64,000 nucleotides of DNA, taken from assembly GCF_026571515.1 (NCBI RefSeq), contig NW_026854188.1, forward strand, positions 372,001 through 436,000, in the 5' to 3' direction. The position numbers and the translations under genes are program-made. Positions 3,127-58,537 of the stretch are shown piece after piece. The DNA is from Ruditapes philippinarum. Its lineage: Eukaryota. Below the pieces are notes generated by a model. The model saw only the letters and a program-made list of their open reading frames with translations, was not told the DNA's origin and ran no database searches. Every line of letters starts with the position of its first letter. The first letter of the stretch is position 1.

Positions 3127-6100
3127 TTAAGATTTGATAAAAATTGCCATGTAGTCGGCTCTTCCAAACATTCGTCTGCTCCAATAGTCGATTGTGTTAA
3201 TCTTCGAGTAAAGGAATTGTGGATATTTTGGATGGTTATCCCAGTTGCATAAGTTATTTGGACGTTCTTCTTCAGATATTACCATGTGACCTTGGTCTAC
3301 AGCACAACCACCATAGTGTGAGTTGATTATAAAGCGACGTTCACCTGATCTGGGTCTGTAATCTCCAGCAATCGAGAAGAGGTTGAAACTTCTGGTTGCA
3401 GTTAGATCTGTATAGCTTGATGAGATAACACGTCGTTTATCAAACCAAGAGTTGATATTACTTCCGGCCCCATTGAATATGACGTAAGCAACTTCTTGAT
3501 TGTTTTCATAGTAGGCATACTTGACATACTTTACCCCAATATTGGCCCAGTTTGAGACAATTCTGTTTCTGTAGTGATCCGAGTACGATCTTGCCATAGA
3601 TTTGGGTTTGTATGAGGAAACACCAACCCCTGAATTAAAGATTTATAATAGAACTATACTAATACAATAAATACAATATTAGCAGCATGCATATCATATG
3701 GGAACATTTTATTCAAATATTCTTTTCGCTAAACATGTGAAAATGTGAAATTTTACTTACTGTGAAATTATCAGCTTTAATATAGTTTTCATAGATAAAT
3801 CAGTATATCTCTTAAAAGCATGGATAAAATATAGGTCATCTTACGAAAGCCGTAAATGTAAAAAGCCACCTGTATGCTATTAACCAATACTGAGCCTTTT
3901 TGATAACTTCCTGATTTATGATAATTAAGCAGTATGAAGAAACCAAAGACAAATATATTTTCATTTTATATCAGATAAATGTGTTCACAATTGATCTTTT
4001 GCAGAGCATACCAGTTTGCATACTTTATCGTCAACTGTAATAATATTACTGTAGCTAGCTATAGGGTAGATGTTTTGTTCAAGCACAGAACGATTATGAT
4101 TTTTATACTACACTAAAGTTCCTCTGAAAGATTATTATTATAGTCATAGATTGTTTAGAAAATATCAATGTAGACGTATAAAAGTTCTAATTACATAAAA
4201 GAATATTTAAAAATTACAGCAATTGTTTGAATGTTGTTGTGTGTTTTTTTTGTTCTTGTTGTTTGATTTGTTATTTTGCTGTTTTTTGTTTTTGTTTTGT
4301 TTTTGTTATTGTTGTTTTCTTTGTTGCTGTTACTTTTCACTGTAAGCTTGCTCGCATTTTAAGGTTTAAAAAAATAATTCTTGCACACCTTTGGTCCACG
4401 CATTATATACATTTTGCCCATTACTTGATGAGGCCCGAAATACCATCTTCCATCCGTCCTGCTCAAGCTCCGAGACAAGCAGCACCCGTTGTCCAGGAGT
4501 ATTCAATCTGTAATAAAGTTAATAGTTTGATCAATGGCTCGCTCGTTTGGTCTCGGTCCTGCTGAATTGTCTGAATAATTATAAATTTCAGGCATTAAAT
4601 TGCTGCTTCAAAATTAAATGGAAATTGCGTCAATGCTCAAGAATATTAAAAATTCACAAAGGGCTATAATTCATTTAAGTTCTATACCAGAGTTAGCCTT
4701 TGATAGTGACCTCCAAATATGATCTCAAGACATTTATTACGTTTTATGTGAATATTTTCAGTTTTCTTTCGAAAACTGATGTTAAAGTTTCAAATGAATA
4801 CCTACCACTACATACATGTCGTTTCAAAACTTTAACCAAGACTTTTCTAACTTCACATTGTGACAATTATTCAGTCTAAATCTAAATTAGGTTCACGGGG
4901 TTTAGAGTGTGATCTCCAATTATGATCACGAAAACATAAATTCATATAAACATTTGTATTTGGTTTCAATTGTTCTTAAAAAATGATGTTACAGTGCCAA
5001 GCAATAACCAAGAATTTTCCGAGTTCACAAAGAGTCTATTAATCAATCAAAATCTATGTCAGAGTAATGGTCCTTGGAAAGTGACCTCTATTCATGGCCA
5101 CGAAGACATGCATTAAGATTAAAGTAAATTCAGAAGGTTCGCAAAGGGTCATAATGCAGTAAAATCCAAGATAAGGTACTGATTTTGGATAATTTTTGTC
5201 TTGGATATTGACATCTACTTCTCATGCCAAAGACATGATGCCAAAGACATAAATTAAATTTCAATTGAACACTTCATTACATAATTATGATCGTCACTTT
5301 TCAATGATATTACATGGAAAACTTTAAGCAGGACTTATTTAACATGCGCATGGAGACATCAATTGCATTACACATATGCCAAAACATCAAAGACCGGATA
5401 TGGTGACCACGATAGTATCCTATTTCAATAAGTTGTAATGTGATTGTTTTCCGACTGGTTTGCATTTATTATAAAAAAAATATTAAAAACGTGACTGTCC
5501 AGAAAACTAAATGATAAATTTCCAACATTGGCAGTAATACAACAATGCGATAAAGCGAAAACACAACAATGCGAAAAAGTCAAAATATAACAATGCGAAA
5601 AATCGGAAAAAAACAACAAAAAAAACAACAGATGAAATGCAAATAGACGCCAGATTTTGCGTGTCGTATTGCCGCCCTTCTTCTCACGTAATTTCGACTT
5701 TTCGCCTCGAAAATCCGAAAAAGCGAATACACGAAGAGATGACAAAAAACAACAACATTAAAACGTGCAACCACAGCGCGTCGTCACGAGAATCTATCCG
5801 TTACTGCATGTTTGTCCTCCTTTAATGTAAACCTGCATGCACGCTCACATGCAAGACATATAAAAAAAATAGCTACAACAGTTAACGTATCTTGTATGGC
5901 ATAAAATTGTAAATATTATAAGGTTATTCAACATAGTTGAATCGATACTGAATTCTATTAAACGAGTAAGCAGCTGTCAAACCTATATTCAACGAGAAGC
6001 GTGCCGTGTCTGATATAAGTCTTTCAACCTTCTTTGAGTTAAATATAATCAGTATTCAACTAAACAAAGATAAATTACTTCATGATTGCACGCTACAATT

Positions 6101-13109: not shown

Positions 13110-15164
13110 GTGTTGTGTTGTGTTGTGTTGTGTTGTGGTGTGTGTGCGTGCGTGTGTAATTAAAAAGTTAGCTTGTTTTTTATGAAATCTTTTAACAATT
13201 ACACATTTCAGATTGTTGACCTCGGAACGACGGGAGTTGCTTGTTGAAGATCTCGAAACAGATGGTTGGGAGATGATTTTCCGAGCTACATCATGTAATG
13301 GGCAAAACGTGTATAAAGCCTGGACAACAGGTGGGTAGTTTAAAAGCACATTAATCCTAAGAATTGAATATCTTATATCAAACATATGTTTGATACTTGA
13401 TAAATGATGGATTTATACTTCATAAATGATGGGTTTCAGGCATCTTATATGTTTTTGATTTTAAGAAACTGTGTCGCCTATTCAGAAAATTACACAAAAC
13501 GGACTAAAAACAGAAAGTTTTTTTAGGTCAGACCGCTGATGTTCGTCTGTAAAAAAAATTTTGAGTCCGTTATATACAACGCAGACACTCTAAGAAACTT
13601 CACGCAATTACAATCCACATGCATTACATTTACAGATGTTTCATTGGGGGGTTTGTTTAAATGTCTAGCATCGTTTAGCGATTCAATTTCATGAACACTT
13701 TTTGTTAAGATTCTATCTCGTTTTTTCATGTATTGATATCAGTCAGTTTGCATAAAATATTTTACAAATACAAGAACAAAAAACATTATAAAAATAAAAC
13801 ATACAAAATCACAATGATGAACGGCATGCAATATCTCAGACGACAACTTAAATGATGAAATTACATATGGCGAACATAATAAAATATATTTAGCTATCTA
13901 CAACAAATAAATGCGTTAATTAACAAGGTGAATTAACAGTACAGAAAATGAAATATAATAAATATATGAAAATCAGTGTCAGAGGTAGTGGGTCCATTTT
14001 GCGACATTTTCTTCGTAAGCATTGCAGCTTGTGAACACACCAGAGCAATATATTTTGTCGACGACTGCATGAAAATGCAATAGAACTACAAATATTAATA
14101 AATTTAGAGGAAAGTCAGGAGGGTAGAATTGCATTTCGGTTTATTTATCTATTTTATGTTTTTTTGTCTTCTAAAAAAGAATTTGTATCTTATAAAAAAA
14201 TAAAAATGTTGACAACTAAAACTGTGATCAACCTTTTTTTCGCTTTCACATACGGGGGTTAAAGTGCATTCTGGATAAGCGGATATTCACATATATTTTA
14301 CCGATGCTCAATTTTGAGATCCATATGAGATTTATATACCCCGAGTAGCATTACATTAACAAACAAAAGCTGCTGATTCAAAACGTTATAAGTTTACATA
14401 GTATCATAGACTGTAACAGGCTCATCCATTGTTAAAGTTGACTGTAATCACATAATTTCGAATACATAATGTTATATATTATACAAGTTATACTCAGTTT
14501 ATATATTTATCCTTTTCTCACTCCAGTACTTCCTCATTTAATACACTGTCATTTAAATGTTAACAGATATAGCCTTCTAATTTGAGAATAACAACAAAAC
14601 AATTAGCCCTGATTATTAACGACGAATGGTATTTTTATCTTAATTCTTTTCTTATCGGCAGGGGCTAGTACATGTTCCGACAAGCCAGCTTCAATGGAGC
14701 GATCATATTCGAGTCACTTCAGAAACAATATTGTCTCAAACTGGGTCAATATTGGAGTAAAGTATGTCAAATATGCATTCTACAAAAACAACAAAGAGGT
14801 CGCTTATGTCAAATTCAATGCAACCGGAAGTAACATCAACTCCTGGTTCGACAAAAGTCGAGTTCTAGCCTCCAGTTACACGGATTTAACATCAACAAGT
14901 GTTTATAATATATTCTCGATTGCTGGATATCACATTCCAGGAAGTTTCGAGCGTCGCTTTCATATCAACAAAGCTTATGGCGGATGTGACGTAGATATTG
15001 GTCATATGGTTGTTTCAGAAGAAATCCCTCCCAAAAAAGGATGTTTCTGGGATATTCATCCAACATATCCACAATTCCTGTATTCAAAAATAAATTCTGT
15101 GGACGTCTGGAACAGGAGAATGTTCGGACGAGCCGATTACATGGCAATATTTATAAACATCTAG
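12774..15164 (+). CDS. Uncharacterised secreted protein, paralog B, 3 exons, 277 aa
   Basis: Exons 12774-12985 (TCAAG|gtaag), 13212-13330 (ttcag|A...LLTSERRELLVEDLETDGWEMIFRATSCNGQNVYKAWTT G|gtggg) and 14662-15164 (ggcag|GG ASTCSDKPASMERSYSSHFRN...FGRADYMAIFINI*). Total 834 nt, in frame. AATAAA follows the stop at about 15186. Confidence 0.9.
13077..13157. repeat. (TG)n + (TTGTG)n microsatellite in intron 1 of paralog B
   Basis: Seen directly in the sequence. Confidence 0.92.
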
Positions 15165-16972: not shown

Positions 16973-18783
16973 ACAGAGAACTGGCCGCTTTTAAAATAGT
17001 TACTTTCATTGAGTTATTTGAATAGGTCTAATTCTAATATCAAACATAGGTATGGGCGGTCCGGTCCTGTATGTAATAGAAAGAGCACCGAAACACGAGG
17101 CTATCTGATTTGTACGAGGGGGCGTAGCCCCCGAGTATAAATCAGATTGCCGAGTGTTTTGGTGTTCTTTCTCTTTTGTATCATAGTCAAACATGACAGC
17201 ACGTTCCCTGTTGTCATAATATGAAACCCCAGAAAAAATTAACCAATGAACGAGCATTTGAATATGATAGTTCTGCCCCTTTCCCTGTCTCTGCCGTCAC
17301 AATATGTAAACCCCGGCAAAAATGAACCAATCCACGGGCATTATCTGGAGTGCGGGTAACTGATACCCGCACTCCAGTTACCGCACTGTGCATGTATATG
17401 TATACGATTTAACTCTGACACTTTTTCAACAGAAAGGTACCCAACCTATGATACAATAAATTATTGTCAATTAGAATTTCCGCTTTTCCAATCAAAATTA
17501 CCAACATACCCAGTTTCGGTTTACATTTTAAAGAGAGCCCCGGTATCAAGCAGTTATATAAATATGCTAGAAATACATGTGTTTATTGTAACGATGGGGT
17601 AGTTGTGTCGGACCCGGGTCTTTCAAATTCTATTTGAAAGACCCTGGTCGAGTGTTGTTATAATAATAACATTTAAGTGGTTTTTTTCCCCATCCTTAAG
17701 CAATCAAAAATGACGATTTTTTGAGAGTGCATTTTTGCCGACACAAATAGTATATACAGTCATGTACATTCAAAATGAATTTTTACTTTTTATGCCTTTA
17801 CATATTTTTTTTTGAAATTACATAGATTTATATTGTTGTTTTTTTTTTGTCTTATATATCCCTTTAGTATTGTACTTAATCGTATCGGCATTGTCCATCG
17901 TATCCCCCAATGACGTCATCCAAGGGCGACAACTTGAATACGGTCTTAAATGAAAGGGTCTATTACTTTACTTCCTTTTTTAATTCGATTTAAATACTAA
18001 TATCTTCTGCTGATGTCACTGAATTAAGCTTGCACGGTTTGTCGTCTGCTAGACTCAATATTCTCTTGGCCATGTCGTTTCCGTCATCGTACCACCAACA
18101 GAAACTAATAAAATATGTGTCATGTTTAAATTATGGTAGATCTAATTGTTATATGATCAACCGCTTTAGCTTGATAATAAATACATTGGAACGTCATACC
18201 TACGTCAGTACCCTTTTTCTTTGCGAAACGTCAAATTTGCTTTGCATCGACACGCAAGACCGCTTATGAACATTAAAAAACAATAACGAAAAATGTAATA
18301 AGACTCGAACGTTTTGCCTGTCATAAATTTTGTGATAAACTTACTAAGAGTTATGCTTTAATTAATTTATTTATTTATAGATCTACTGTAACTTTTTGTG
18401 AACCGCTGGAGGTTATTCGCGCTCTACTGACTGATACTAAAATCGCTAAGACTGTAGTTACTTCCCTTAGATTAGTTTTCGCCATTTACCCGCATGCAAT
18501 TATTAAAAACGTACGGGAAGTTTTATAGTGCTTTTTATCAAAACTTGACACGGACATGTTATATATCTGATTGGTACAGAGTGGTTTAATATTTAACAAG
18601 TAATAAGAAATGATAAGTACCGTAAAATGCTACGAAACAAGTGAAAATACGAATTATCAAAGTGCATATATAACCGGATAGCAAATTGCCCGTACATGTA
18701 TATTTTCAAACAATAAATGCTGCTATACTGTGAAAATAATCTGTTTTAATTGACAACCATCTGTTCAACATAAGAGTCTCATC

Positions 18784-19239
18784 ATGACTGAATTTTCCAG
18801 CAAGGTCTTTGAATATGAGAAATTTGTGAATGAAAAACTTAAAGAAGATTTGAGGTTGATACTTGAACAAAGAGATAAAACTTATCAGCAAATTGCTGAA
18901 TACTTACAACTTAAAACTTCCATCGAAAAGATACAAGAAGTCAAGCTTACAGAAGGTCTAAAGACTAAAGTGGATCTTGGTTGTAACTTTTATGTCCAGG
19001 CAAATGTGCCAGACTCCTCGAGAATCTTTGTATTTATAGGATTTGGTTTCTTTTTAGAAATGACCCATGATGAAGCCCTTAAATTTATAGGCAAAAGAAC
19101 AAAGTTACTAAACGTGCATGTAGAAAAATTGACAGACGATGCAGCTAAGGTTAAAGCAAATATTAGGTTAGTCCTCGAAGGTTTAAGAGAGTTGCAACAT
19201 ATCAGCAATGAACAAGAAACACCAAAAAGGGAAATGTAA
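18784..19239 (+). CDS. UXT: Protein UXT homolog (alpha-prefoldin-like subunit), single coding exon, 151 aa
   Basis: Recognisable UXT motifs: KVFEYEKFVNEKLKEDL, YLQLK, KTKVDLGCNFYVQANVPDSSRIFVFIGFGFFLEMTHDEAL, VKANIRLVLEGLRELQ. Helix - beta hairpins - helix prefoldin-alpha layout. Uninterrupted ORF. Confidence 0.93.
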   Translation: MTEFSSKVFEYEKFVNEKLKEDLRLILEQRDKTYQQIAEYLQLKTSIEKIQEVKLTEGLKTKVDLGCNFYVQANVPDSSRIFVFIGFGFFLEMTHDEALKFIGKRTKLLNVHVEKLTDDAAKVKANIRLVLEGLRELQHISNEQETPKREM

Positions 19240-31988: not shown

Positions 31989-34481
31989 CTAGCAGAACTC
32001 ACAAGTAAAATTGTAACCTGAGATTTCGCTAGCTGTTTTACCAACAAATTCTTCAATATCAGTACACTCGATATGCCACCATCTAGAGCAGCTATCACAT
32101 CCTATCCATTCCTCTGGCAAACCTTCAGCAGAATGGCAACCAGGACACACTTCTGCCTCATCGTAATCGCTGTCATCCATGTACGAGATTTCCATCTCTT
32201 CATTTTCATTCTCACTATCACTACATTTATCAGATTTTTTGCATTTCATTTTTTTCTTAAAAGCTTTCTTAAGTTCTCTCTCCCTTTTCTTTTTCTCTTT
32301 CTCCTGCTCTCGCTCAAGTTTTTTTCTCTCTCTCTCTATCTTTCTTGCTTGTTTTTCTTCTTCTTCTTTTTTTTTCTTTTCATCCCTTTCTTTCATCATT
32401 TTCAATGCAACTGATCCGGACAGAGCTTTTGGCAGCTTACCCCGCAAAGTATTATTTGTTTTTTTAGCTTTAATTTCTGGTACTCTAAGTTTAAAGAATG
32501 CTGGGGAAACATAATCTGGAGAACGGACATTTTGTGAAAGGATTTTAAGTGGCTGTTGAAGTAACGGAGTGGATTGCTGTACAGATATATCGGTTGACGG
32601 GTTCGAACTCGGCACAGTAGCTTGGACTGAACCAGAAGATGTACAAGGATCAGAGCTAGAATCAGAAGAAGGGATTTGTAATGTACATGCCATGCTAACC
32701 TGGTCTACATTCACACTTTTTGTTAGTTCTGCCTGGTTCGAACTCGGCACAGTAGCTTGGACTGAACCAGAAGATGTACAAGGATCAGAGCTAGAATCAG
32801 AAGAAGGGATTTTAAATGTACATGCCATGCTAACATGGTCTACATTCACACTTTTTGTTAGTTCTGGCTGGATGAGTGGGGCAGACAACTTTGAAGGGCC
32901 TAACTTTGAAAGATCAATCCCTTTAATAGACAGTGGGTATAAACCTGACCTCTTAAATGCACTTATACTATTGGCTAATGTTGTTACCTTGTCCCAGGCT
33001 GTTTTGAAAACGCTTGGGAAATGGTATTTGGTAAATGGTTGCCCAAGATTTTCCATTTGCCAAGCTTTAACAGCCACAGACCATTTCATTTTCATTGGAC
33101 TAAAAAGTCCAATGTCACAAGCCTGCAACACATGCGTTGCATTAGCGAGTAGACAGTAGAGTATTATGCTGTTATCAGCACAATACTCTGCTGCTACTCG
33201 ACTGATATGCGTACTATGGCCATCTACAAATAAAATCACTGGTTTATGAATGGATTTATCATCAACAAAAGCATTGAATTCTCTAAGAAAGGATAGGAAC
33301 AAATCTGAATCCATCCATCCGTTAGCAGAATGACCATAAATGGCCTCAGGAAACCCAGATAAAGCATCATCACGAAACCGCTGCCCAGGATACACTATTA
33401 AAGGTGGCATATAATCCCCACTGGCATTCAAGCATGCCATCACAGTTATCTGAGTTTTGTCACTAGACAAAACCTGATATACATGCCTGCTCCCTTGTGG
33501 AGCAAGAACCTTTTTTGATGTCACGCTTATTGGAAAGCCCGACTCATCGGCATTGAAGATTCGTTTTGGATCTCCTATCAGCTTCTGAAAGTCGGGTACC
33601 TCCTTTTCAAGGTACTCAAATAGACCCTTGTACCAACCTGCAAATAAAGACAAAGGGCTATATGCAAGTATGTATGCGATTAAAAAGATAAGGAATCATC
33701 TTTGCAGTTCAGAATAAGAAATAATTATGAACTTGAGGCACTTACCATCGACCATCTCGTAAGAGATTGAAGCTCTCTGGTGCCCTAACCTTGTTGAAAT
33801 TTCCGGGTTCCTGGTCGTAAAGGCTTTATACCATGCCTTACCAGGTAAATTGTCAGTGAACTTTGTTTTCCTTCCATCAGTATCCAGCACTCGCTTCACT
33901 TCGTACAGAAGCTCTTTCCTAGTAAGTGGGTACCCTTAAATAATATATATATATGAAGGCATCTTGAAAAGAAAAAGAACACCTCAATTTTGATTGTTTA
34001 TTGATCTATGTTAATAAATAAAATCAAAGCGTGGCTTCATTTATAGATAAATTATTTTTATATTTTTTTTTTGACAAGTTACATGGCCTTATATGAACAG
34101 TTATTTGTAGTATATTGCAAATAACCGTTTATATATATGTATGTCACATAACATGTTAATAATCTTTATTACAAATTAATAATTGTACAGAAATATCATT
34201 TATGTTTTGAAATCTGTATTCATACCTATTTCTGCCATCAATGTAATGTAGTTAACTAGTGTCTTCTCTTCTGCCTGTGTTAACTCGGGTTTGCTGCCAG
34301 GCGGGGTGGGGTCCATAGGCACCCTGCCATATAATTTATCCAATAGGGTGGTTCTTGGGACCCCAAATACCTTCGAGGCTTTGGACTTAGACATTAAGCC
34401 CTCCTGGATCGCACTGATAGCACTGGACATTTTGCTTGGGCTATATGTAACCCTCTTTTTAACCTTTAGCTGATTTGACAT
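31989..34481 (-). CDS. pogo-type transposase: HTH_psq + CENP-B-type HTH + DDE_1 (DD35D) + charged coiled coil + PHD finger, ~697 aa, 3 coding exons
   Basis: Exons 34481-34226 (MSNQ...ASKVFGVPRTTLLDKLYGR...LTQAEEKTLVNYITLMAEI G|gtatg), 33934-33746 (GYPLTRKEL...NLPGKAWYKAFTTRNPEIS...G|gtaag) and 33637-31989. Catalytic motifs IFNADESG, LFVDGHSTH and LQACDIG, with 35 residues between the 2nd and 3rd Asp. C-terminal CPGC...WIGCDSCSRWWHIEC...CEFC (C4HC3). Probable non-coding 5' exon ends at 34804 (CAG|gtaag). Confidence 0.88.
32600..32868. repeat. In-frame 135-bp (45-aa) tandem duplication in the transposase linker
   Basis: GTTCGAACTCGGCACAGTAGC starts at 32601 and again at 32736. The peptide ELTKSVNVD.VSMACT..IPSSDSSSDPCTSSGSVQATVPSSN occurs twice. 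Confidence 0.9.
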
Positions 34482-35388
34482 TCTATAAATAGGAAAATGG
34501 ATATAGTTCACTTTAAATTGATCAAAACATTTCTTTTACATATAATTAAGTATTTTTTAGTAAGTGAAAGACTATAAAAATATTTATTGGTGCAAGTCAT
34601 AAGTATGTCGATAACACAGACCCTTGCTTATTTTAGGATTGTGTTATCGACACCCACGCATATTATGACTATTCGAGTTTTACAACATTTAGTGGTTTGA
34701 AACCATTTCAACATCTACAGATAACACCGTCATTTCAAAAATAATAAGGCGCGCTCGCGTGTTTATCACAGTAATACGAATATAACATAACACCGTCTCT
34801 TACCTGATGACGTAAGCGGCTTGGTCGTCTCACTCTTCTCAAAAATTTTGACGATAAATGTTGACAGAAAAATGTCCTGATGTTCAAAACTTCGCGGGTT
34901 TGGACTTTTACGTAATATGTGACGTAATTTGATACAATATGACGTAATACATGATTACAATAAATATATGTCGATAATTACAACCTGTCGATAATACCAT
35001 ACCTTGCTCATGTATGTATGGTTATTTAAACCGTATTACAAAGATTTTCTAGACATTGTTTACGTTTTAAAATCATCCGTGAGAATGACGATCTGCCTAC
35101 CGTTATGAAGGCGACTTGTGTTTCGTTGATATCAATGAATACAAAACAACATTTAAAATTGTATTGTCCTGATATTAGGTATTTATCACATACCCGTGCC
35201 GCTTTTGCGACTCCTTAAAAAAACGGTATTGCATGACGTACCGTGCATACATTTTGACATGGCGTCATTTACGTTATACAAACATAGCGTAAAGACGCGC
35301 TAAATGTTAACGTTACACTCATAATGAAAATGTTATTCTTTTTCACTGTAAACAATTTTTATTTTGGTATGTGATAAGTAAGATATTA

Positions 35389-43300: not shown

Positions 43301-43961
43301 ACTGGCGGGTCGATCGTAGGAAGAATATAAGATTATAACTTTCTAAGTCACCATGCACATACTGACGTTATTGCGATTGTAGTTTATTAATAGTTTATTA
43401 ATAGTGTTTTTAATAATTTAGTAATTTATATAACTAATTATATCTCGTTATTCAGGGATTGGCATTTGCTCTGACAAACCAAAATCTATGGTACGATCGT
43501 ATTCAAGTCACTACAGAAACAATGTTGTCTCAAACTGGGCCAATATTGGAGTAAAGTATGTCAAATATGCGTACTACGAAAACAACCAGGAAGTAGCCTA
43601 CGTCATATTCAACGGATCCGGAAGTGATATCAACTCTTGGTTTGACAAACACCGTATTATTGCATCAAGCTACACAGACCTTACAACAACCCAGAAGTAC
43701 AACTTTTTCTCGGTCGTTGGAAATTACGTTCCAAAAAGCCGGGAACGTCGCTTTTTCATCAATACATTATATAACACATGTGCCGGAGACTCTGGTTATC
43801 TGGTCGTTTCGGAAGATGAACCTCCCAATAATCTTTGCAGTTGGGATAAACATGCGAGTTATCCACAATTTTTATACTCGAAGATTAACTCCGTCGACCT
43901 CTGGGGCAGTCAATTGTTTGGAAGAGCCGACTATATGGCGATTTTCGTCAAAACTGAATAG
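40351..43961 (+). CDS. Uncharacterised secreted protein, paralog C, 3 exons, 273 aa
   Basis: Exons 40351-40547 (MLKAWLLILFLGDIKFVLSDEP...TCTAG|gtaag), 41756-41874 (ttcag|G FSTTGQKVLLVKDLEKDGWNMVFRATSSNGQNVFDAWTK G|gtgct) and 43456-43961 (ttcag|GG IGICSDKPKSMVRSYSSHYRN...FGRADYMAIFVKTE*). Total 822 nt, in frame. Confidence 0.9.
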
Positions 43962-45786: not shown

Positions 45787-48700
45787 TTATTGTAATGTGT
45801 TGTGTGTACGGCATTGGTCACTTGAATTGTTTGGATCAGATGGCTGTGACCTGCTCGGTACTGTCATGTTTTCATCGACTTTAGTCCGGATAGCATGAAT
45901 CTGAAATAAAACATATTAATTAATACTAGTTCTTGATTTAAATATGAAGAAAGTCCCGACTAATTGGATTGAACCCTGATCAAGAGAAGATTTTAAAGGG
46001 TGTAAATCTATACATTATGAAATATTTAAATAGAATTTATCAACAGTAAAATCATATTATGTTCCATTATTATATAGGTGATTCCCGAAAAGTAAACATG
46101 GAATGTGTCTCTTATTTAATAAACAAGACTAATTTACGTAAACAGAATAGATGTTTCGAAACAAAATATCATTTTGCCATTTTATGTAGGGTTTTTATCC
46201 GTGTGCATGCACCATTCGCTCTTAAGGCAATTAATAACCATATTTATTTCATACAAGCATTTTGGAAGTATACTTTTTTTAAATTTCAACCAATAACTTT
46301 TGCATCAGATATTTAGCTTTATACACTTTAATAAATATATTCTCTCATTTGTTTGTAAAGAAAATAAAAGCAAAACGTAAAGAATATTAATTTCTTAAAT
46401 GTGAAGCTTACATTGAAGATTCAGAAAATACAGAAACACAGCAAAATAGCATTTCTTAATTACAGTTCTTTTTAAATGATGATTCATCCAAATTCTGAGA
46501 AGTATGGTTTTTACCTTTGGTAAAAAAATGACAATTTCAATGAGAGTCGTTCCAATTAATAGACAAGCTGTCGTCACCCCGTATACCAGATCTTCATTGC
46601 CCTCCAGTAGAAGTGAAATAGTTAAACCAACCGCACTGAGAATTACAACGTTATAAATACACAAACCAATCTCATGCGAATCATTCAATGCTTCGATTTT
46701 AACCTGTGTAATGTAAGATGAAATATACAATTTAAAAAGAATGATGATAAAAAATTATTTTCATTTCAAACTATTTATATTATACCGTACATATATAGAG
46801 TGTTTAAGCCAAATAGAATACAATTGCAAAACGTCTAGGAGTTAAATAATTATAAAAGGCTACAGATGTTTTTTTTATATTCTATTGGCAAAGTATATTT
46901 AAAATTTTGATCTCAAAATAATTTAAAATACATTCTTTCTGTATCATTTAAATAAATTATGAAATTCTCTATGAAATTTGTTTTTTACTTTTCTTGTTTC
47001 CCATGCTAGGAACGATCCAAAGGTTAGCAATATACCATGGGTGATGTACAAAGCCCATTCAAAATATTTGGAATATTTCGACTCGCACATCCTGACATAT
47101 GGTCTTACTTCAACGCCATTATTAAGGGTGTATACCTTCAACGAAAACGATAGGAAATATTTATTGCAGAAGCTTCTCCAGCATATTTCTTTCGATTCGA
47201 TTCATCATTTAACAAAGTGTACGAAATATCAAGTATATGTAATTCTACCTTGGCTTATTCTGAATTTAAATTTGTTTTCACTTTTCTATCAATTAATATA
47301 GTATCAATATGTTTCAAATTGTGAATTGTGATTGCTAATTTAGAATCATTCGCAGACAATAGAAATATAAGATCGTTGGTAATGCTTTTGTAAAGTATCT
47401 GCTTCTCGTAGTATCCTTTCGATGCGAATTTTATAAAGTAACAATGACACATTAACTAGCATATTGATAAACAATATAAATATAGGTTGGGCCCCGAAAT
47501 TGTTGTTTATAAATTTTGGCCAAACCCTTTTCAGTTACATTAATGTATTTATGTATAATATGTAAATATATATAATAAAATATGTTAAAACTTAACTATT
47601 TAACACAATTCAAAATCAATAAAAAGCGTTCATACCTCATTCGGTAGGAACATTTTGGTAGTTTTGTGAGGGCTTAATGTTTCCCATAGTATCAGAACGA
47701 CAAGTTGCACCGCCACCAAACCCACTAAAACAATCAGCAGCTGGTAGTCCTTGATTGCCTGTCATACAATAATGTTTCAATGAATAATGATAAACACGGT
47801 TTATATCGGAGGCCTATGATCGCTTGTCGGAAACGTGCGAGGTATGTGGTAGTTTTAATTATTGTCAAGATGATAATTGAGGCTAACTTTATTTTATAAT
47901 ATGTAAAGTATGTTTAAATATATGTATACAATATATAAAAACTATAACTGGCATAAAAAAATAATAAAAAAATACATTGTATCTGTAGTACTAGAAAGAA
48001 AGAAAACAGATAAAATTCAAATGTTGGATTGAAAATGGTATAGGCTCCGTTGTAATGTATGCAAATAATCACACACGCTCAACTTCCTACATACGCCGAC
48101 TTACGAGGGGAAAAATATTCATAAAACAAACAAACAAAAAACATGTTTTATATACCAAGAACAATGGACAAATAAGTATATCTCATGAACCTCTGATAAA
48201 ACAAAGTATTTTGATCATGATACATGATGTATAGTAAAACAGTAACATTTTACCCGTTTAAGAAGTCTCTTATTGGTAAATATCCTATAAACTCTCCAAG
48301 TTTTTGAGAACAAGGCGCCAAATGTAATCGTGAATCCAAGACTAAAACTAAAAATTCGGGCCTGAAAATTAATAGAAAAATTTTGAGTTAGACGCAGTAG
48401 TTCAAAGGAACGTATTATCATATTTGGAAAAGTCTATGTTGAAATATCGTTCATTTTTCATTTTATATTTTCGGTTTGAAGGTTTCATTTGTTATTTCTT
48501 GTACCGCTTCCGTTTTCATTTGGAACATCTTAATCCGAAAAGTTTCGACTATTATCATATAGTTGCTTCTATCTCTGGTTACATTGAAAATGGCACTGTA
48601 CAGCTAGATATAACACTGAACAGGTCAGTGATGGGAACAGAAATCTATATATATTTAATTGTTTTTATTTGATTTCCTTTTAGATATACACCTGTAGTCT

Positions 48701-51700
48701 ATAGCCGGGCGAGCAAAAGCAAAAAAATTTTCCTCGTGTAATTTGTTTGCTTAAATGCTTTGATAAATTGATTAAATACTTATAGAACAATTTTCATTTT
48801 GGTATACTTATAAAACACTTCTCCAGCAATAAATGTAAAAAGGATTTCCAAAGGTTTCATTTGTAGATATCGCTCTTTCTTTACCTATATTTTTCTTGCT
48901 GAGCGGTTGCTTGCCTTCGTATAAGCGTGTACAATTGTAGTATACACTTAGTAACAATATGGCGAATATATGTCTTTTAAATCTTATATCTTCTTTCAAA
49001 GTAATATCTATCACGCATTTACATTTTGCATTTTCTCTTCCTCTCGTATCAGTCCTTTTGTGATAGGTACTGTTCGAAAAATTATTGTTTACATATCATC
49101 ATTGTTTCTAATTTTGGTTTTGTTATGAATAGGATATATTTATTTCCAAAGGATATTACTTTTGTAAACGGATTCCATTCTCGTTGAAAGAAATGTGTAT
49201 TCAGCATGCAATAATTTCATGATTTTCCCTGTATTTATGACGCAAATAAACCCAGCATCATTTACTTAATCGCTAATTAGAATATGAAAAAAAGGTTTTT
49301 TCGGTAATTTATGACATAATCTGCAGAATATTGGCTTATAATTCCAACATAACCTAAAACGTTATATGTTATCATTCTAGCTATATTATTCTGCATATCC
49401 AATCAGCAACCTATAAAATATATATGTGATGTGTGGAGAGAAAACACTGATGAAACAACTCACAATTATTATAAATGAGCATTGTTATGACAAACCAACA
49501 TAATGGGTTTGCGACCAGCATGGATCCAGACCAGCCTGCGTATCCGCATAGTCTGATCAGGATCCATGCAGTTCGCTTACAAACCCTATTACAAGTAGAG
49601 AAACTGACAGCGAAGAGCATGGATCCTGATCAGACTGCGCGGATGCGCAGGCTGGTCTGGATCCATGCTGGTCGCAAACACATTATGTTGGTTTTGTTAT
49701 GGCACGACCCAAATTAAATTTCATACATACCTTACAGACTGCGGCTTGGTAAGCTTCTTTGGTTTTAAAGAAGACTGTGCAGTAGCACAAGATACATCCG
49801 AACAATAAAATATTGTTGATGTTTGGAGATGACATCTTTATGAACCTGTGGTATAAATTAATTAATTCTAACATCAGTGGTTTCCATACAACTTTCAAAT
49901 ACAAAATGAACATATTTGTATCAACATATTATTACGACTAAACAAATTATATACAATCTTCAACTCATTTATCTGAAAATATTATTAATAAATGAAATTT
50001 ATTTAATTTGAAACTAAATCAATGATAAAAATAAACATATTGTTTTGAGATAGAAAATGGTAATTTGGTTAAGAAGACTGCAAGCCAATAATTCTAAACA
50101 GGGACAAAATTTATTATATTTTACCTATCGAAACAATTAAATTTTATAAAGAACGTTTTATGAAATGTATTGTTTTTATCAAGTTTTAACATTGATTTTC
50201 TGCCAAAGTGTAAAGCTTGCAAAGAAAAATATTGCCATAATCGTATCACTGTTGATGCCCCTAGGGATAAGACTATATTTTAAAAAGCTTTATGTTACTC
50301 AAAAGTTGATTAACATTGCGGCAATTTACCTTTATGAAATAACGAATTCAACATAGTTTCGTTTCCAAATGCTATCATAGGAATTATAATGGGTTTCTGA
50401 CCGAACCCACAAATTCATTATTGCTCTTATACTTAAGGGAAACAACACCATGTTGTAACTATACTGAAAGAGTGAGATTTTACAAAGGCCATCGATAGAG
50501 AACACGAATGACATTACATTAAGCTTTCACGATTTTAATGATAAAAATCTTGCTTACTTGTTGTTTCTGTAAAATACGTTGAAACTAAAGAATACGAGAG
50601 TAAGACAGACGCCGAATCCTGCCAGTGACGTCATCACTACCACAATGTATATTGGTATATATTGTTCTTCTTCTATAACGAGCGTCGAGTCTCTAGGTAC
50701 GATTCCATCTTAAATATATAAAGTTTTAATTTAAAATGTTTGCACATTGACTTCAACTATCAACTCTAAAAGTGCAAACATTGGGGTGACTGAAAACATT
50801 TCTGAAGAAACTGGTCGTGTCAATGGTGTGTTAACAGCAATTCAGCTCACGCAATTTTGTTTGGATATACTCGAGCAACAAGGGTCAATGTATTGGACAG
50901 TAATGGTTGTCTAAGCACCCAACAGTTAGTTTAAACAATTTTATTTCACTTTGTACATTATTAATATATACAGTAAGCATATACAATCACACTGATAGAT
51001 TTCGTGGATTGGAAAACAAGTCAAATGTGACTTATGAAAATTCCTTTCCACAAAATGGAGATTAGCGACCTAGTTATGAAAACCAAATCCGTCAAGGCCT
51101 TGCAGCATGTACTAACATTTAATTCAAAATGTTTTAGAGCTGGCTGATATTTAATTATACCTAGGTGAAATATTGCAAGTGATAATTTTCATTGAATGCG
51201 GAAATTCTTGCAAAAAGGGCCAGAACACCGCTAGAAATAATCATTCCAAAGACTGGAGACCCAAAAGATTTTGGAATAAGTAAATTTGAAAAATCTTCAT
51301 ATACATGTGTTGTTGCAATTATGAACTCCTGTTAGGGAGTTCGGTGACATAGAAAATACAAACAATAGACAATGACCCTAAGAGCTGGATACTTGAAACG
51401 TAGCAAATATAAAGCTTTTGCAATATTTTAAATTTCCTACTTTACACGGCAAGTTGTCTTAAATGATACTCAAGTATTTACTATGTAGAACGAATGTTTG
51501 ATGTATACGTGAATCGATGCAATTTTATAGTAGATTATTACAATTTACTATAACTTGACGATTATGAGCAGTGAATCGCGTACTGTTTTCATTTGAATTT
51601 TTGTTAAGTATTATGTGATTTATATGTTCGTTGACCAGGCTAATTTCTTTATATTTAGTTATATATTGTCATTATTGCATATATTGGGCACATGTCAGGT

Positions 51701-54700
51701 TAATAAAATATAACTTACTTACTTGACTGGTAGTTTACATCATTGAGCATAACTTTGAAGCAGATGAAAAACAGTAATACATATATCCAAAGATTACTAT
51801 CTTTTTGTAGCGAGGAAAATTGTATAGATTTGTATAGATAGTGTTACCGTTATTGTTAAGAAAGCTTACCAGAAATCCTTTCGAGCATGTTAAAAGAATA
51901 TTGTTCTTTTTAAGGACATTTGATAAAACTTTGCCTTGTCTTGAATAAACTTTTCGATAAGGTGCAAAAAAAGTGCATTGAAAGGCTGGCGTTAAAACTG
52001 CGCTCAAGTTTGGACTAATAGAATTGGACAAACGTAACAATAATTAAGTTTAGTCTTGTACAGATAGGTCGTTAAAACGTCTTAAAGCAGACGAATATAT
52101 CCAATAAGAGTAAGTAAAAAGACCCCTGATCAGAATCAGGAAAATCTCTTGTCTAGATTGAGATAAGTCACGCTTAAAATGTTAACACATTTCTGAACTA
52201 ATCGTTCGTTTATGTTATATAAATGCATCTTGAAACTACTTCTATTGCCTACATAATTAAACAATTTCAAATTAATGTATCGAAAAACATTTAAAGATAT
52301 AAGGTAGCAGTTTTAAAATGTCTATTTGAATATTGAACAATTATTTATATTTTACTGTATAGTTTTAAAACACGTATGTTTTGTGGTACTTTCATTATAA
52401 TTTACCTTTCCATACAAGCGCTCCATCAAACCAGTCAAAATAAGGTGGATTCCTATCTTGTCTGTACATAGCTACTACCTTCCGCTCTCCACCTTCAAAA
52501 TTTACATTAGCAGATATCACACCACTTAGATCAAAAAAGTAACAGACCATACCCTGTATTGAATTTGTATTTGTCACATTTTCTGGTTTTGAAATAGAGA
52601 TAACAACTACACAAATAAATGTTTTTTTTCTGTTGATACAAACACAGGAGTTATTTCATTCTATTTATATCCTTAATCTATTGTTGCATATGAAGATCTA
52701 GCATATTGCTCAAGATTTTGCATTGAAAAATCCAGATACGTACCTCAATCTTCTGAAATTGCACAATTTTGTGAAACTTCCCCTAAGTGTGGGACGTTTG
52801 TAACTCTATTACAAATTACTGTTTTAAATAATTTTGATATGGGAAATAAGAATGAAAACGCCAAAAATATTTCAACGTAGATAAATGAAGGATCTCATTA
52901 CCTTGAATTCGTTCAAGTTTGATAACTCTGTCAGGATCAACATCAGACGAAAGAACTATCCTTCCCGATAGGCCTGTCATGTTAGTTTTTGACATACAGT
53001 CTTTGATAAAGGCATTGATATCAGAATCATTGTATGTGAACATATCTAGAGATTTAGGATGTTCTGAAAACCAAATGGTTAAATATTGGATACACAAAAC
53101 ACACAAAAAATGTAAAAGACAAATAATGTTTTGTCATATCTGAAATGTATATATTTTTATAGACTGGTATAATATAAAAAGAATAACTTCTTTATTTTAT
53201 TTGAAAACGATAGCGTTAAAGATTGTTAGGTTTAACTGTATTTCGATAAAAAATAATGGAAAAAAAAAAGAATCGGATTGTTGATTTTTTTTATCTAGGA
53301 TTAGTTTAAATTAAAGGATTCAGTCCATATTTTCACTTACGAGCAAGAGAAATCACTTTGCATTAAAACATTTGAACTTCCCACATAGTTTGTTTGAGTA
53401 AAATTTGCTATTTTCATGTTTTGTTTTGTATAAAGTCGAATGAATGTTTGAATGTTGAATTGGGTATCTGTAATGAAATGAATATAAAGAGTTTTTACAG
53501 ATCGCTTCGTTAAAAGAAAACAACATCATATGGTATTGAGATGACGTAATTCTTTAACAAAATAAGAATTGTGAGCGTACTTTGTTTCGCTAAAGCAAAG
53601 CAGTAGATTTTTTCATAAGAAGAAATAGTTGTTAATAATATTATGCAAATAAACATTTAAGAGTGTACCTATGTTTGTCAAGATGGTATCTGTACAGTTT
53701 AACGCCAAGGCGGCAATCCAAACATGGTCATAGCATTGTGGTGCAGCAAAGTCCGTGCCTTTGTACTTTTTGTTGTAGCTTCGGTGATTATAGAAACGTG
53801 TTTCGAATTCACTGACTGAGATGCAAATGTATAGCATAGTATTATTACAAAATTTTAAGTAAATCGCCATATTTCAAAAAGAATAATATAAAATAACTAG
53901 GACTTGTTGCATTTTTTGATCAGTAGTCTTTATAATTCAGTATTTTTCATATTACGTGCAAGAAAAGTTTTCATTAAAATTTTAATTGCAATTTGCCGTT
54001 CTAATAGTCATTTCTTGAAAAAATTCTAACTAATTTACAGTGTTTTGTTTTGTATTTAAATCGAAGGCATTTGAATTATGAACTTGGTTTATAATGAAAT
54101 AACAAAAGAGTTGTTCAAAAATCACTTTTAAAAAAAATACATATTATGAGATGAGCTAAATAAACAAAATAAGAATGGAATATTATGCTTTCCTAAAGAT
54201 ACTGATTTTTCAAAAAAAATGTATTTTAATAATTGTAACAAATAAACATGTAAGATTGTTATCTAAATTTTTAAATAATGTTTTTTTTACAAAATAAAGA
54301 TTAATTCTAGTAGAATCTTTTTATCACAACTATTCATTAATATGTCAAGTTTAAAAATATTGGGATGAATGTTAAACCTGGGAAGAAGAGATTTACGTCT
54401 TATGTCATTAAAGTACGAACATTCAAATAAGTAGTGAAATTCATCATCAATAGCTTGATACGGACAAAAGGAACAGACCCTATTATTATGATCAATTGCC
54501 AAATGTCTGCATTTTTTCAATTGGTAATAGGTGATTCATTGTTCTGAATTTAAATAAATGTTTGCCTATGTCAAAAGGAAGTACATCAAGATATTTTTCA
54601 AAACAATGAGTATTTTTATATGTACGATACACTAAACACTTAGAGGATGTATCAATAGCACTATGTCAATTTTGCAAAAATTGATCTTGTAGTCTTAGCT

Positions 54701-57700
54701 TCACAATATTTTTAAAATGATTAATATTATCTAACTTCTGTAAAGGAAAATATTCTGACATGCCAAGATAACTAAGTGTTTCTTTCACAAAATTTATCCA
54801 TTTAGAATTACAGCAAAAAATGAGAATAATGTCATGAAAGCAGGTGATAGAAAGAAGCTTGCAGGCTCAATCAAACATAGTCTGTAATATGTTTTTATCC
54901 ATTTTGTGCTTTTTTGTGCGACCGGTTTTTTGTTTTAAATACTTTTATCCCATCTTTGTAACAATCATTTACTAATTAAGATATAGTGTATCGGTTTTGA
55001 AAACATTCAGGAAAACGTAATTTATATTACCATACACAATAAGTATAATTACAGTTAGCGCAACTTTAGCACAAATACCTGTCAAGTCAGCTACACCTCT
55101 CTCTTCAAATGGATTTTTAAATATAGGCCCAGTCAGAAACGCGCCTTCTGCTGCCTCCTCCATTTCTTCTACTGTACATTCTACGTCATCAAGTTTCACT
55201 CTCCAGAAAGTGGTGGAAAACCAGCCAGCAAACACCCAAACAATTTTGGGACCGTAAAGACCAATTCTATAGGCCTAACCACATAATCTTTTTACTTTTT
55301 AACATATCATTTGGAAGCACAGCGCATTACTTTCAAATCATAATCGGATATTTATAATCTTAAGAAAAAATCAATTGGTGTTTCTGGGGATAGAAATGAA
55401 CGTTTACTGAGCAACAAACATTTACAGATCCTGTAACTCAATCTTTTTTATGGTTTTATATCATAAATATGATGCTCAAATGAAGATTTATCAATATTAC
55501 CGAATTTACATTTCATGCTTATAAAGGGGCCCCTTTATAATAAATAAATTGGAAATTTATTTTCTGTAAAGTCTGAGTAAAATTTTCCAATAAGAAATGT
55601 ATATATATATTTTAATAATTACATAATGTGGAGAAATATTTGCAGTACATATTTTACATATTCTTCGATGTTTGAAAATTATTTTAGAAGCATAATTATA
55701 GACATACATGTATATAAAATTTCACTTAACTGTGGTTACAACCAGAATTACAACATACAGGATCTTTAAACTTATTGTATGAAGTACAATTTTAGTCCGA
55801 CAATTTTGTACAACAAAATAATTTATTGCGTAAAACTAAAACTTTTAAAAAATGTAACCGTGATAAAATGCGTTACTTGACTCAGCTAATAAAATGTTCT
55901 AATTATTCTATTAAGCTTAATGGTTTGTTTCGTATTTAAGCGGAGAAAATCAAATTTGACATTCTCTTTTGTCAAATTTGCTCTGAGCAATCAAAATATC
56001 ATTTATTGTTCACAAGAAATAACTTTTATGTCAAGGATTATGTGTCAGCAGTATAATTCATCATCATAAATACATGTTACAGTAAAATTGTGTTACAGTA
56101 AAATTGTGTTACAGTAAAATTGTATTTGTTAAAAGATAATATATTAATATGACTCACTGCACACAGAATCGCCCTTGCTTCGTCTTCATGCAGACTGGTC
56201 ATTATTACTCTGGCGTCATGCATCTTGTTGAATCATAAAAAATAAAATATTTGCAGTATCATTTAACATTGTTCAGAAGATAAGGTAAAGATTATATATA
56301 TGAAAAAGAACTGATAAACATTTATGAATATATCAAATTTAAATATTTTATTTTAAATTTGTCATCTTAAATAATTGTCATCTTAAATAACCAAGGCATT
56401 CCGTATGATTATTTAGTCAATATATTTAAGTCTTTTAAGTATTTAAATGGGCTCTGTTCCACTATTTCTATCTTGATCAAGTAAAAAAAAAATATGAACT
56501 TCGGTGATCCAATCGATTTAGTCGCTGCATAGATAATTATATTGCGATCTTGAAATTTCTGATAACATAAGTTTTAAATAACCGGGTTTTTGTAATTAAA
56601 TTATGATCTCTGAATTCTTATTTAAGTAACATAAAATACTCATAGAATCAGTAAAACTCAGTATAAGAATCAAAATAAAATTGGAAATACTTAACCTTCA
56701 GGTTGTTAATACGGTTAAGAGGATCGTTAACAAATATTTCCTGTGACAATATTGAGATGTCTGTCTCTTGTATTCGTTGCACAAAATCGTCTATAACCTG
56801 AACGATAATAATTATATTCCACAAAATAAAACAAATGTTTAACAAACAATAAAACCCTAGAACTAAAACGTAACATGTATTAAGACTATGGTTGAATATT
56901 TCTGCCACCAGATAACCATTTAACTAACTAGTTAATTAAGAGGTTAACTAGTTACGTAACTAGTTAACCTCTTCATTAACTAGTTAGTTATCAGGTTATC
57001 TTGTGGCAGAAATATGCCACCATATAAGACAACATATTTTTTTTGTAATTTTATGTTAAAATTTCTTTATAATTTGTAGGATCATTTCTTTATAAAATTA
57101 CCAAATGTGAAAAAAACGAAAGCTTATTGTAAATGCTTAAATCTCATACCGTTTTCAATATTTTTTCATACAAAAATTCGAACTTTTACCTGATAAAGGA
57201 AAAATTAAAACTTTTTAAAATAAAATTAATTCGTGTTTTAAGGTAATATTTAAGACCCTTAACTCTACTTTCTTATTTACCACAGAGAAGAACTCTAATG
57301 CTTGATGTATAGTTGCCACTTTTTTCCACTTGAATTCGTTCAGGAGGGCAATTCTGGCCTGATTCATCTTCTGATCAGGTTCGACAATCCGGTAAAAATT
57401 GGGAAATCGTTTTCTGTCCGAAAGGATTGGGGAGGAAGAGCCATAAGAAAACTGAAATATAGAATATTTTATCTTTTTAGTAACTTCCTTTCAAGCGTCA
57501 AAATTAAACATGACACTGAGGAAACTTATCAAATTTGACTGTTAAGTAACTTCCCTTTCAGTACAACATTACCATTGTTCTCTTTCCGCGTCAAAATTAC
57601 GCACAAGACGACTTTGAGAACCTCAAACTATCTTGTCGAACAGTGTCTAAATTGACTGTGTCTGGATCCATGCTTGTCGCAAACGCACTATGTTGTTTTT

Positions 57701-58537
57701 GTCGTGCTGCTCAAATGAGAAGAGACTTTTTTGACAACACAGATTGTTTGTTATATACCTGGGTAAGGTTCCAAAGATGAGAAACTTGGGCTGTTGCTTC
57801 AGATCCCACTGAGCAACCGTCTCCCAACAGCATTACATAAGGTGGGTCTTTATAGAAGGCTTCAAACATCCGGAACACCGGTATTCCAAATGTGCACTAG
57901 AAAAAAAATAATGTAATCAATAAAAAATAATATCTTTGTCCAAAAGATGTGTGTGTGTGTGTGAAATTTTATGCAAAAGGTAAGTTTGTTACTCAATTTG
58001 TTCAGATATGTCATGAGATTTACGATAACAAATTGTTTGTCTTGAGTATTGAGTTAATGATATTTATGATAAGATGAAGTTTCAAGTACATGTATTTTTA
58101 AACGTTTTAAAATATGTAAAATCAATAAAATTTCAAAAGTGATTTTTTTTTCTTTTCTTTTTTTTCTTTGGTTACAGTAAAAGATTCAAATGTTATTTTC
58201 CCCAAATTCACCATTTTTGAAAGTGTCATATGTATAGATTTGAAAGAATAGTGAAAAGGTGTCACTGTTGAAGAAAGCAAAGCTTCTAGTAAATCTAAAA
58301 ACCACATACCTGACTGTCAATCCACTTGTAAGTTAGATTGTACTCTGTTAGTATGTCCATTCTGGAGTTGATATCCTCAAGTGCCATCTGTATTGCTGGC
58401 AAACACGATCCTCCGCCTGCCCAACCATTGCCAGTCATAGGTAACATACCTAGCAGACGCAGATCCCGTAATTCTTTCGAAACAGAATATGAAAACGTTG
58501 TAGTCATAAATAATAAAACATTCAGTTTCTGTGCCAT
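45787..58537 (-). CDS. GABA-B receptor-like class C GPCR (Venus flytrap + 7TM), 16 coding exons, ~747 aa
   Basis: Exons (-): 58537-58310 (alternative ATG at 58573), 57896-57759, 57451-57281, 56797-56696, 56223-56158, 55274-55079, 53815-53669, 53063-52902, 52492-52406, 50708-50558, 49845-49731, 48361-48254, 47758-47636, 47135-46989, 46703-46515, 45900-45787. All introns are GT-AG and phase-compatible (2244 nt). Motifs: GWAGGGSCLPAIQMALEDIN, LLGDGCS, SYGSSSPILSDRKRFPNFYR, FIKMSSPNINN, FGALFSKTWRVYRIF, FLAWETRKVKIEALNDS, IFLPK. There is no cysteine-rich domain between VFT and TM1, as expected for the GABA-B type. Confidence 0.92.
49477..49710. mobile_element. Same palindromic MITE family, in a receptor-gene intron
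   Basis: Near-identical to 9755-9989. AAAT flanks at 49473-76 and 49711-14. Confidence 0.88.
54287..54810 (-). mobile_element. Degenerate LINE ORF2 C-terminal fragment in a receptor-gene intron
   Basis: KWINFVKETLSYLGMS...KLRLQDQFLQN*...SSKCLVYRTYK...FEKYLDVL...FRTMNHLLPIE...RVCSFCPYQAIDDEFHYLFECSYFNDIR, with a stop and a frameshift. Confidence 0.78.
56887..57024. repeat. 138-bp near-perfect palindrome (fold-back element) in a receptor-gene intron
   Basis: Centre AACTAGTTAC|GTAACTAGTT at 56955/56956. Arms are TATGG..ATATTTCTGCCAC.AGATAACC..TAACTAACTAGTTAAT.AAGAGGTT and its reverse complement. Confidence 0.9.

Follow-up and report, generated by a model that had tools for sequence, protein, structure and literature searches.

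What does a GABA-B-like receptor bind when its pocket keeps the residues that hold the carboxylate of GABA and lacks those that hold the amine? The question is raised by a gene in a 64,000-nucleotide stretch of the Ruditapes philippinarum genome (the window), which an initial annotation took for a divergent paralog tuned to another small carboxylate, possibly chemosensory. We find that the gene is a non-canonical paralog, real and intact, and that its pocket state is common to a large, partly described set of invertebrate orphan receptors. On the sequence comparisons below, we hold with slightly better than even confidence that it is an intact member of a clam-expanded orphan GABA-B-like clade, apart from GB1, GB2 and GB3, whose ligand is probably amino-acid-like and not GABA and which probably signals by itself through Gi/o.

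The gene encodes a GABA-B-like class C GPCR of 747 amino acids in 16 coding exons on the minus strand (Table 1). All introns are GT-AG and the only stop codon is terminal. The extent first assigned to the receptor, 53669..58537, is a real part of this larger intact gene, corresponding to exons 1–7, but the gene continues to 45787. The deduced protein comprises a Venus flytrap domain, a seven-transmembrane (7TM) domain and a short tail, and has no cysteine-rich domain. Hydrophobicity of the exon 1 N-terminus is weak, and a signal peptide is uncertain. Three Mercenaria gene models of the closest relatives do not include exon 5, which would suit skipping of that exon.

Table 1. Features of the receptor gene, in window coordinates.
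Feature	Position	Strand	Basis
Whole gene	45787..58537	-	16-exon gene model, GT-AG introns; 60% identity to P0009
Exon 1: N-terminus; W39 = W65 at 58423-58421	58310..58537	-	Gene model, PDB alignment
Exon 2: C104-S105 = C129-S130; S105 at 57812-57810	57759..57896	-	Gene model, PDB and clade alignments
Exon 3: G126, S128 = G151, S153; V145 = H170 position, 57385-57383	57281..57451	-	PDB alignment
Exon 3: D148 (57376-57374), F176 (57292-57290) = mGlu1 D208, Y236 positions	57281..57451	-	Alignment
Exon 4	56696..56797	-	Gene model
Exon 5: His225 = Y250 position, 56190-56188	56158..56223	-	Gene model, clade alignment
Exon 6: W253 = W278 at 55223-55221; A251 = mGlu1 D318 position	55079..55274	-	Alignment
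Exon 7: A324 = E349 position, 53747-53745	53669..53815	-	PDB alignments
Exons 8 (53063-52902) and 9 (52492-52406): flytrap domain end	52406..53063	-	Gene model
Exons 10-15: stalk and 7TM domain	46515..50708	-	Gene model, alignments
Exons 10-15: GB2-type ICL1 KMSSPN; ICL3 LND in exon 15	46515..50708	-	Alignment
Exon 12: TM3/ICL2, F535, KTWRV..IF.N	48361-48254	-	Alignment; GB2-type
Exon 16: 37-residue C-terminal tail and stop	45787..45900	-	Gene model

The window protein belongs to the broad GABA-B-like class C GPCR family. Membership was tested by aligning the window exons to PDB sequences and by applying Pfam and fold prediction to P0009, a named R. philippinarum 'GABA-B subunit 1-like' protein that is 60% identical to the window protein and stood in for it. 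P0009 contains ANF_receptor and 7tm_3 domains, and its predicted model (pLDDT 90.1, from a 64-row alignment) finds its best structural matches among GABA-B chains, with a flytrap rmsd of 2.0–3.0 Å against human GB1 crystal structures. P0009 matches exons on another contig of the same genome, mostly at 88–96%; because it has exons of its own there, it is a paralog of the window gene. Homolog searches returned no identical protein of the window gene among the matches. Identity to Mercenaria proteins is 57–66%, and reaches 71% for the sister protein in that genus.

The reported GABA contacts of human GB1 are W65, S130, S153, H170, E349, Y250 and W278 (PMC12499500). All seven pocket motifs lie in the window where the initial annotation had placed them, and alignments to PDB sequences agree with it that W65, S130, G151, S153 and W278 are kept (as W39, S105, G126, S128 and W253). 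They likewise bear out the replacement of H170 by Val and of E349 by Ala, restoring neither His nor Glu: V145 occupies the H170 position in an ungapped exon-3 alignment to human GB1 (E 5e-11), and A324 the E349 position. Taken by itself, exon 7 gives a weak alignment there (E 1.0), but its register agrees with that of the alignment made with the full-length paralog (E 4.5e-136). The seventh contact, Y250, is aligned with H225 in both the full-length paralog and the clade alignments.

This last substitution is present in the assembly but is not fixed in the species. The codon in this assembly is CAT, and two sequencing runs from two other studies under the same species label (X2 and X4) carry A in place of G at 56190, so that the codon reads TAT (Tyr). 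The contigs from these runs have a word depth of about 70 and show 2 and 4 other differences over about 730 bases, intron included; because the differences are few and the flanking intron matches, we assign them to the same locus. Y250H therefore reflects either an allele of low frequency or an error of the assembly; contigs drop rare variants, so these data fit both. The lesson is that even a conspicuous pocket change, when read from a single assembly, may not be fixed in the species.

To place these residues in context, we tabulated the pocket columns in a clade alignment of 35 rows (the window sequence plus 34 proteins, fragments and isoforms included; P0204 was omitted as misaligned). With gaps excluded, C129 and S130 are each kept in 34/34 rows and W278 in 32/34, Y250 is kept in 25/26, the sole His being that of the window sequence, and H170 and E349 are found in 0/34 and 0/31, respectively. 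Acidic residues recur around the pocket: the column of D148 is Asp or Glu in 34/34 rows, that of E175 in 32/34, and E226 is present in 23/26; the column of F176 is Phe or Tyr in 32/34. Beyond the clade, among the best 150 of 525 representatives, His occupies the H170 column in 12 of the 143 with that column filled, 11 of these being GB1, so that all 11 GB1-clade representatives have it; outside GB1 and GB2 it occurs in 1/114, alongside S130 in 101/114 and Asp or Glu at the 148 column in 89/114. The E349 column aligns poorly over the 150 representatives, and its tally is that of the clade rows only. GB2 representatives lack W65 and Y250 and also have Asp or Glu at the 148 column, whereas GB1 has Ala and Val at the 148 and 176 columns. 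The pocket is thus not distinctive of this gene, as had been supposed: loss of H170 and E349 is clade-wide, and is the norm and not a peculiarity of invertebrate GABA-B-like orphans. Published accounts point the same way, with Nematostella GABA-B homologs reported to lack both residues (10.1101/621060) and many GABA contacts described as not conserved in sponge GABA-B-like expansions (10.1101/120998).

Phylogenetic analysis sets the gene apart from the canonical subunits. With P0009 as query, 525 of the 50%-identity representatives match at E below 1e-30; of the best 150, the 146 that are at least 480 amino acids long were aligned. Three clades separate in a FastTree tree: GB1, with 11 rows that bear the FRTHP motif and named members that come from Xenopus and abalone; GB2, with 19 rows; and that of the window sequence. 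In IQ-TREE analyses of 42 chosen rows under two models, the window sequence groups with Mercenaria P0008 (100/100) within a 12-row bivalve clade (100/95–99), itself nested in a 22-row invertebrate orphan group (100/99) whose named members are abalone, Gigantopelta, Capitella, Lineus, Priapulus and Glandiceps proteins. The GB1, GB2 and GB3 clades are each separate from this group at 100/100, the GB3 label resting on one named insect protein. Single coral and placozoan rows fall outside the orphan group; Nematostella, Clytia and sponge sequences are not knowingly in the tree. AU tests reject grouping of the window sequence with GB1 (p 5.6e-7) and with GB2 (p 4.4e-38), and its separation from GB3 is given by the trees alone. 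A placement of the whole orphan group as sister to GB1 is not rejected by the AU test (p 0.47), nor is it established. In the same genome, a canonical GB1 on contig C3747 carries the H170, Y250 and E349 motifs (FRTHPSA, VFYEDMA and YPEAPLAYD), and, by similarity, a GB2 lies on contig C11143 and, by similarity only, a GB3-like gene on contig C13963. The trees, the AU tests and these other loci support the earlier suggestion that the gene is not the GABBR1 or GABBR2 ortholog, and specifically not a single-copy GABBR1.

The two halves of the protein resemble different canonical subunits. The flytrap domain scores 185–271 bits against 11 GB1 sequences and 54–182 against 19 GB2 sequences, whereas the 7TM domain scores 45–135 against GB1 and 166–210 against GB2. 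Exon 12 carries the same residues as human GB2 at F568, K574, R577, V578, I581, F582 and N584, and the S515, N520, L686 and D688 motifs match GB2 representatives; a role in Gi coupling is reported for these GB2 residues (PMC8222003). Outside GB1 and GB2, 101 of 105 representatives (from the best 150 of 525) share the GB2-type K..R motif, which is hence ancestral and no demonstration of partner-free function. A recombinant GB1/GB2 chimera was considered and rejected, as flytrap-only and 7TM-only trees both set the clade apart from GB1 and GB2. The combination of a GB1-like flytrap with a GB2-like 7TM domain is best read as retained ancestry. The RxRR motif is GB1's retention signal, and inspection of the 37-residue tail found none; judged by length alone, the tail is too short for a coiled coil of the GB1/GB2 type. 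The simplest reading of these features is that a single chain, paired with another of its kind, probably both binds ligand and couples.

The gene is one of a family. Five more multi-exon paralogs were found in the genome: contig C2846 carries three, and C7030 and C13514 one each. The family therefore has at least six members, the window gene included. Their exon boundaries are the same as those of the window gene where exons were detected, and all five lack H170 and E349 and have Asp at the 148 column and Y250. Several members each are present in Mercenaria, Mya, Dreissena, Mactra and Solemya. Ligand preference likely differs among the paralogs, because pocket-lining positions vary. Between the window gene and two paralogs, pN is 0.23 and pS 0.71–0.75 (355 and 624 codons), and differences concentrate at third codon positions; because pN is far below pS and the third-position bias is present, this indicates long purifying selection. 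The branch length of the window gene is 0.24, against a median of 0.68. Four RNA runs, of which 4–19% each was read, give a depth of about 0–5 in repeat-free exon bins, and intronic repeats dominate; none of the 15 joints listed (of 15 + 461) is a splice junction of the window gene, and exon coverage is near zero. Run X7 has no reads on exon 5 and its exon-4 reads extend into introns, and run X1 yields one contig, which is intronic; neither run speaks for or against expression. The runs carry no tissue labels.

The amine side of the pocket is, judged from the alignments, not simply empty, D148 and F176 being conserved across the clade. The reported alpha-amino-acid contacts of mGlu1 are S165, T188, D208, Y236 and D318 (PMC2680970), and in an alignment with an mGlu-like gene from this genome, ungapped across the first four positions, they correspond to S105, S128, D148, F176 and A251. 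Four of the five retain their chemical character (S, S for T, D and F for Y); an acid equivalent to D318 is absent, the position being A251 here and Asp or Glu in 0/34 clade rows. Because D148 and F176 may leave an amine anchor nearer the acid site, an amino-acid-like ligand appears likelier than an amine-free carboxylate. D148 may be structural, since GB2, which is reported not to be the ligand-binding subunit (PMC9138782), has Asp or Glu at the same column. In the mechanism that we propose, S105 and S128 would hold the acid group of the ligand and, with H170 and E349 gone, D148 and F176 would bind an amine at a shorter distance from that acid, the arrangement found in an alpha-amino acid or a short analogue; closure of the flytrap in a dimer of like chains would then activate the 7TM domain of the same chain, which keeps the residues that GB2 uses for Gi coupling.

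Several other readings bear on the same observations. It is unlikely, in our assessment, that the protein is a non-canonical, lower-affinity receptor for GABA (or for GABA, beta-alanine or taurine) in which Y250, W278 and other residues compensate for H170 and E349. The retention of W65, S130, G151, S153 and W278, with Y250 in other individuals, leaves 5/7 of the listed GABA contacts (PMC12499500), and the Nematostella homologs without H170 and E349 are proposed to bind GABA and baclofen, with H170 described as dispensable, Tyr as able to replace E349 and baclofen as active on larvae (10.1101/621060). However, that claim draws on models and whole-animal pharmacology as described in the preprint, H170 is universal among the GB1-clade representatives, and a canonical GB1 is present in the clam itself. 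For Clytia, taurine has been proposed as ligand of a GABABR-like receptor, whereas GABA and baclofen are reported to have no effect on settlement (PMC12225738). The plain small carboxylate put forward initially, an amine-free organic acid perhaps sensed in chemoreception, fits the retained S130 and S153 and the absence of H170, E349 and a D318 equivalent, yet it is quite improbable: by inference from the alignment, the acidic pocket columns (D148, E175 and E226) suit a cationic group better, D148 and F176 point to an amine-bearing ligand, and Y250 is not truly lost.

A partner subunit without a ligand, comparable to GB2 or the orphan GPR156 and acting as a heterodimer with GB1 or a paralog or through constitutive activity, would account for the GB2-type 7TM domain and the GB2-like Val and Asp at H170 and A173. 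We regard it as decidedly improbable, given that, against the flytrap, every GB1 outscores all GB2 tested, that the clade conserves W65, C129-S130, Y250 and W278, of which GB2 representatives lack W65 and Y250, and that the long coiled-coil tail is absent. Decay or silencing of the window copy could be read from the weak N-terminal hydrophobicity, the His that this assembly has where Tyr is otherwise invariant and the missing exon 5 in the nearest Mercenaria models; it is highly improbable for a gene with sixteen intact exons, canonical splice sites, Tyr in two other runs, a 71%-identical sister, a branch that is not long and pN far below pS. The reading that we favour thus remains an amino-acid-like ligand acting on a self-coupling receptor.

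A wider proposal, doubtful for now, is that the orphan group (bivalves, gastropods, an annelid, a nemertean, a priapulid and a hemichordate; 100/99) is a fourth bilaterian-wide GABA-B-like subfamily in which binding and coupling were never split, and that burrowing clams expanded it into a set of homomeric taste receptors that detect free amino acids or osmolytes, a GABA-B-derived counterpart of vertebrate T1R and OlfC receptors. Bivalves hold much taurine and betaine. If the proposal is true, the group would be a living model of the receptor as it was before binding and coupling were divided between GB1 and GB2. This one gene is unremarkable within its clade, and it is the clade that is of use: deorphanization as a self-coupling amino-acid or taurine receptor would show class C GABA-B-type function before heterodimer specialization and offer a way into the study of feeding, settlement or osmolyte sensing in clams. 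Among the invertebrate 'GABA-B subunit 1/2-like' annotations encountered here, most are orphans without H170, and because of this, reading them as evidence of GABA signalling is unsafe. We found no paper on this clam clade in open-access literature listings; subscription papers and preprint supplements (such as the pocket alignment in Supplemental Figure 11 of 10.1101/120998) may already include it.

Comparison with known systems places the receptor between several of them. With GABA-B1 (human 4MS3/4MQE, Drosophila 9JR0) it shares the fold, the domain plan, W65, C129-S130, G151, S153 and W278, Y250 in other clam individuals, and exon 2–6 boundaries that match the clam's own GB1; it differs in lacking H170 and E349, in its separate clade and in its GB2-type loops and 37-residue tail without RxRR. 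With GABA-B2 it shares the ICL1, TM3/ICL2 and ICL3 Gi-coupling residues and Val and Asp at the H170 and A173 positions, but it has a GB1-like pocket frame, a short tail and a separate clade, grouping with GB2 being rejected by the AU test. The expansions reported in Tethya, Nematostella (GABAB1a-d) and Clytia (GABABR-like) resemble it in their multiple paralogs, unconserved H170 and E349 and often missing coiled coil, and a change of ligand has already been suggested in print for the cnidarian ones (PMC12225738); in contrast to these, the window gene lies in a distinct bilaterian clade that underwent an expansion of its own in bivalves. Venus kinase receptors, whose GABA-B-related flytrap is reported to respond to L-Arg and to carry a partial mGlu amino-acid motif (PMC2680970), set a precedent for such a flytrap sensing an alpha-amino acid, although they are single-pass tyrosine kinases and the window protein is a 7TM receptor. 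With mGlu, T1R and OlfC receptors it shares the four chemically kept positions of the alpha-amino-acid motif, and it differs from them in having no cysteine-rich domain and no D318 equivalent, at about 17% identity and with a much poorer structural match of the P0009 model.

The introns of the window's orphan GABA-B-like receptor gene carry short repeats, some with inverted ends, and RNA reads originating elsewhere in the genome pile up on them in great number. The window also holds other open frames, among them three alike that encode a repeated domain, for which comparison with Pfam returned no matches, and an intronless prefoldin-subunit frame that we take to be UXT-like.

Exons of the C7030 paralog, a multi-exon relative of the window gene, recur elsewhere as near-identical partial copies, one of them ~27 kb past the window's end; these are either haplotype duplicates or gene fragments. 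Intron 4 of this paralog contains a tandem repeat (6.7 copies in L018, ~18 in L016) whose 56-bp unit is a copy of the final 15 codons of exon 4, and the exon 4 splice donor is apparently carried within the unit.

Features in the window and in the clam genome searched (G000; C, contigs; L, loci or stretches on contigs)
Feature	Location	Strand
Short intronic repeats	window ~49490-49710; 55420-55750; 57640-57720; 56860-57030	
Repeated-domain frames, 170-180 aa	window 3127-3642; 14613-15164; 43434-43961	-; +; +
Prefoldin-subunit frame	window 18754-19239	+
DDE_1 transposase, C-terminal PHD finger	window 31989-34535	-
Partial copies, C7030 paralog exons	G000:C2675:462923-463189 (L014); C5016; C15599; C7030:1-10330	
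56-bp tandem repeat	L018:6089-6460 (G000:C7030); L016:1-1020	
GABA-B-like 7TM exons of five further genes	G000:C14653; C2296; C3794; C10542; C6521	
GB2-type gene	G000:C11143:261003-289262 (L021-L024)	

The five further genes, whose 7TM exons match GB2-type (GABA-B2) queries at 42-50%, are a group other than the window gene's clade, known from those exons. By similarity, the clam also has a GB2-type gene on C11143, in contrast to a preprint (10.64898/2026.09.08.749565) that reports GABBR2 as undetected in its spiralian proteomes.
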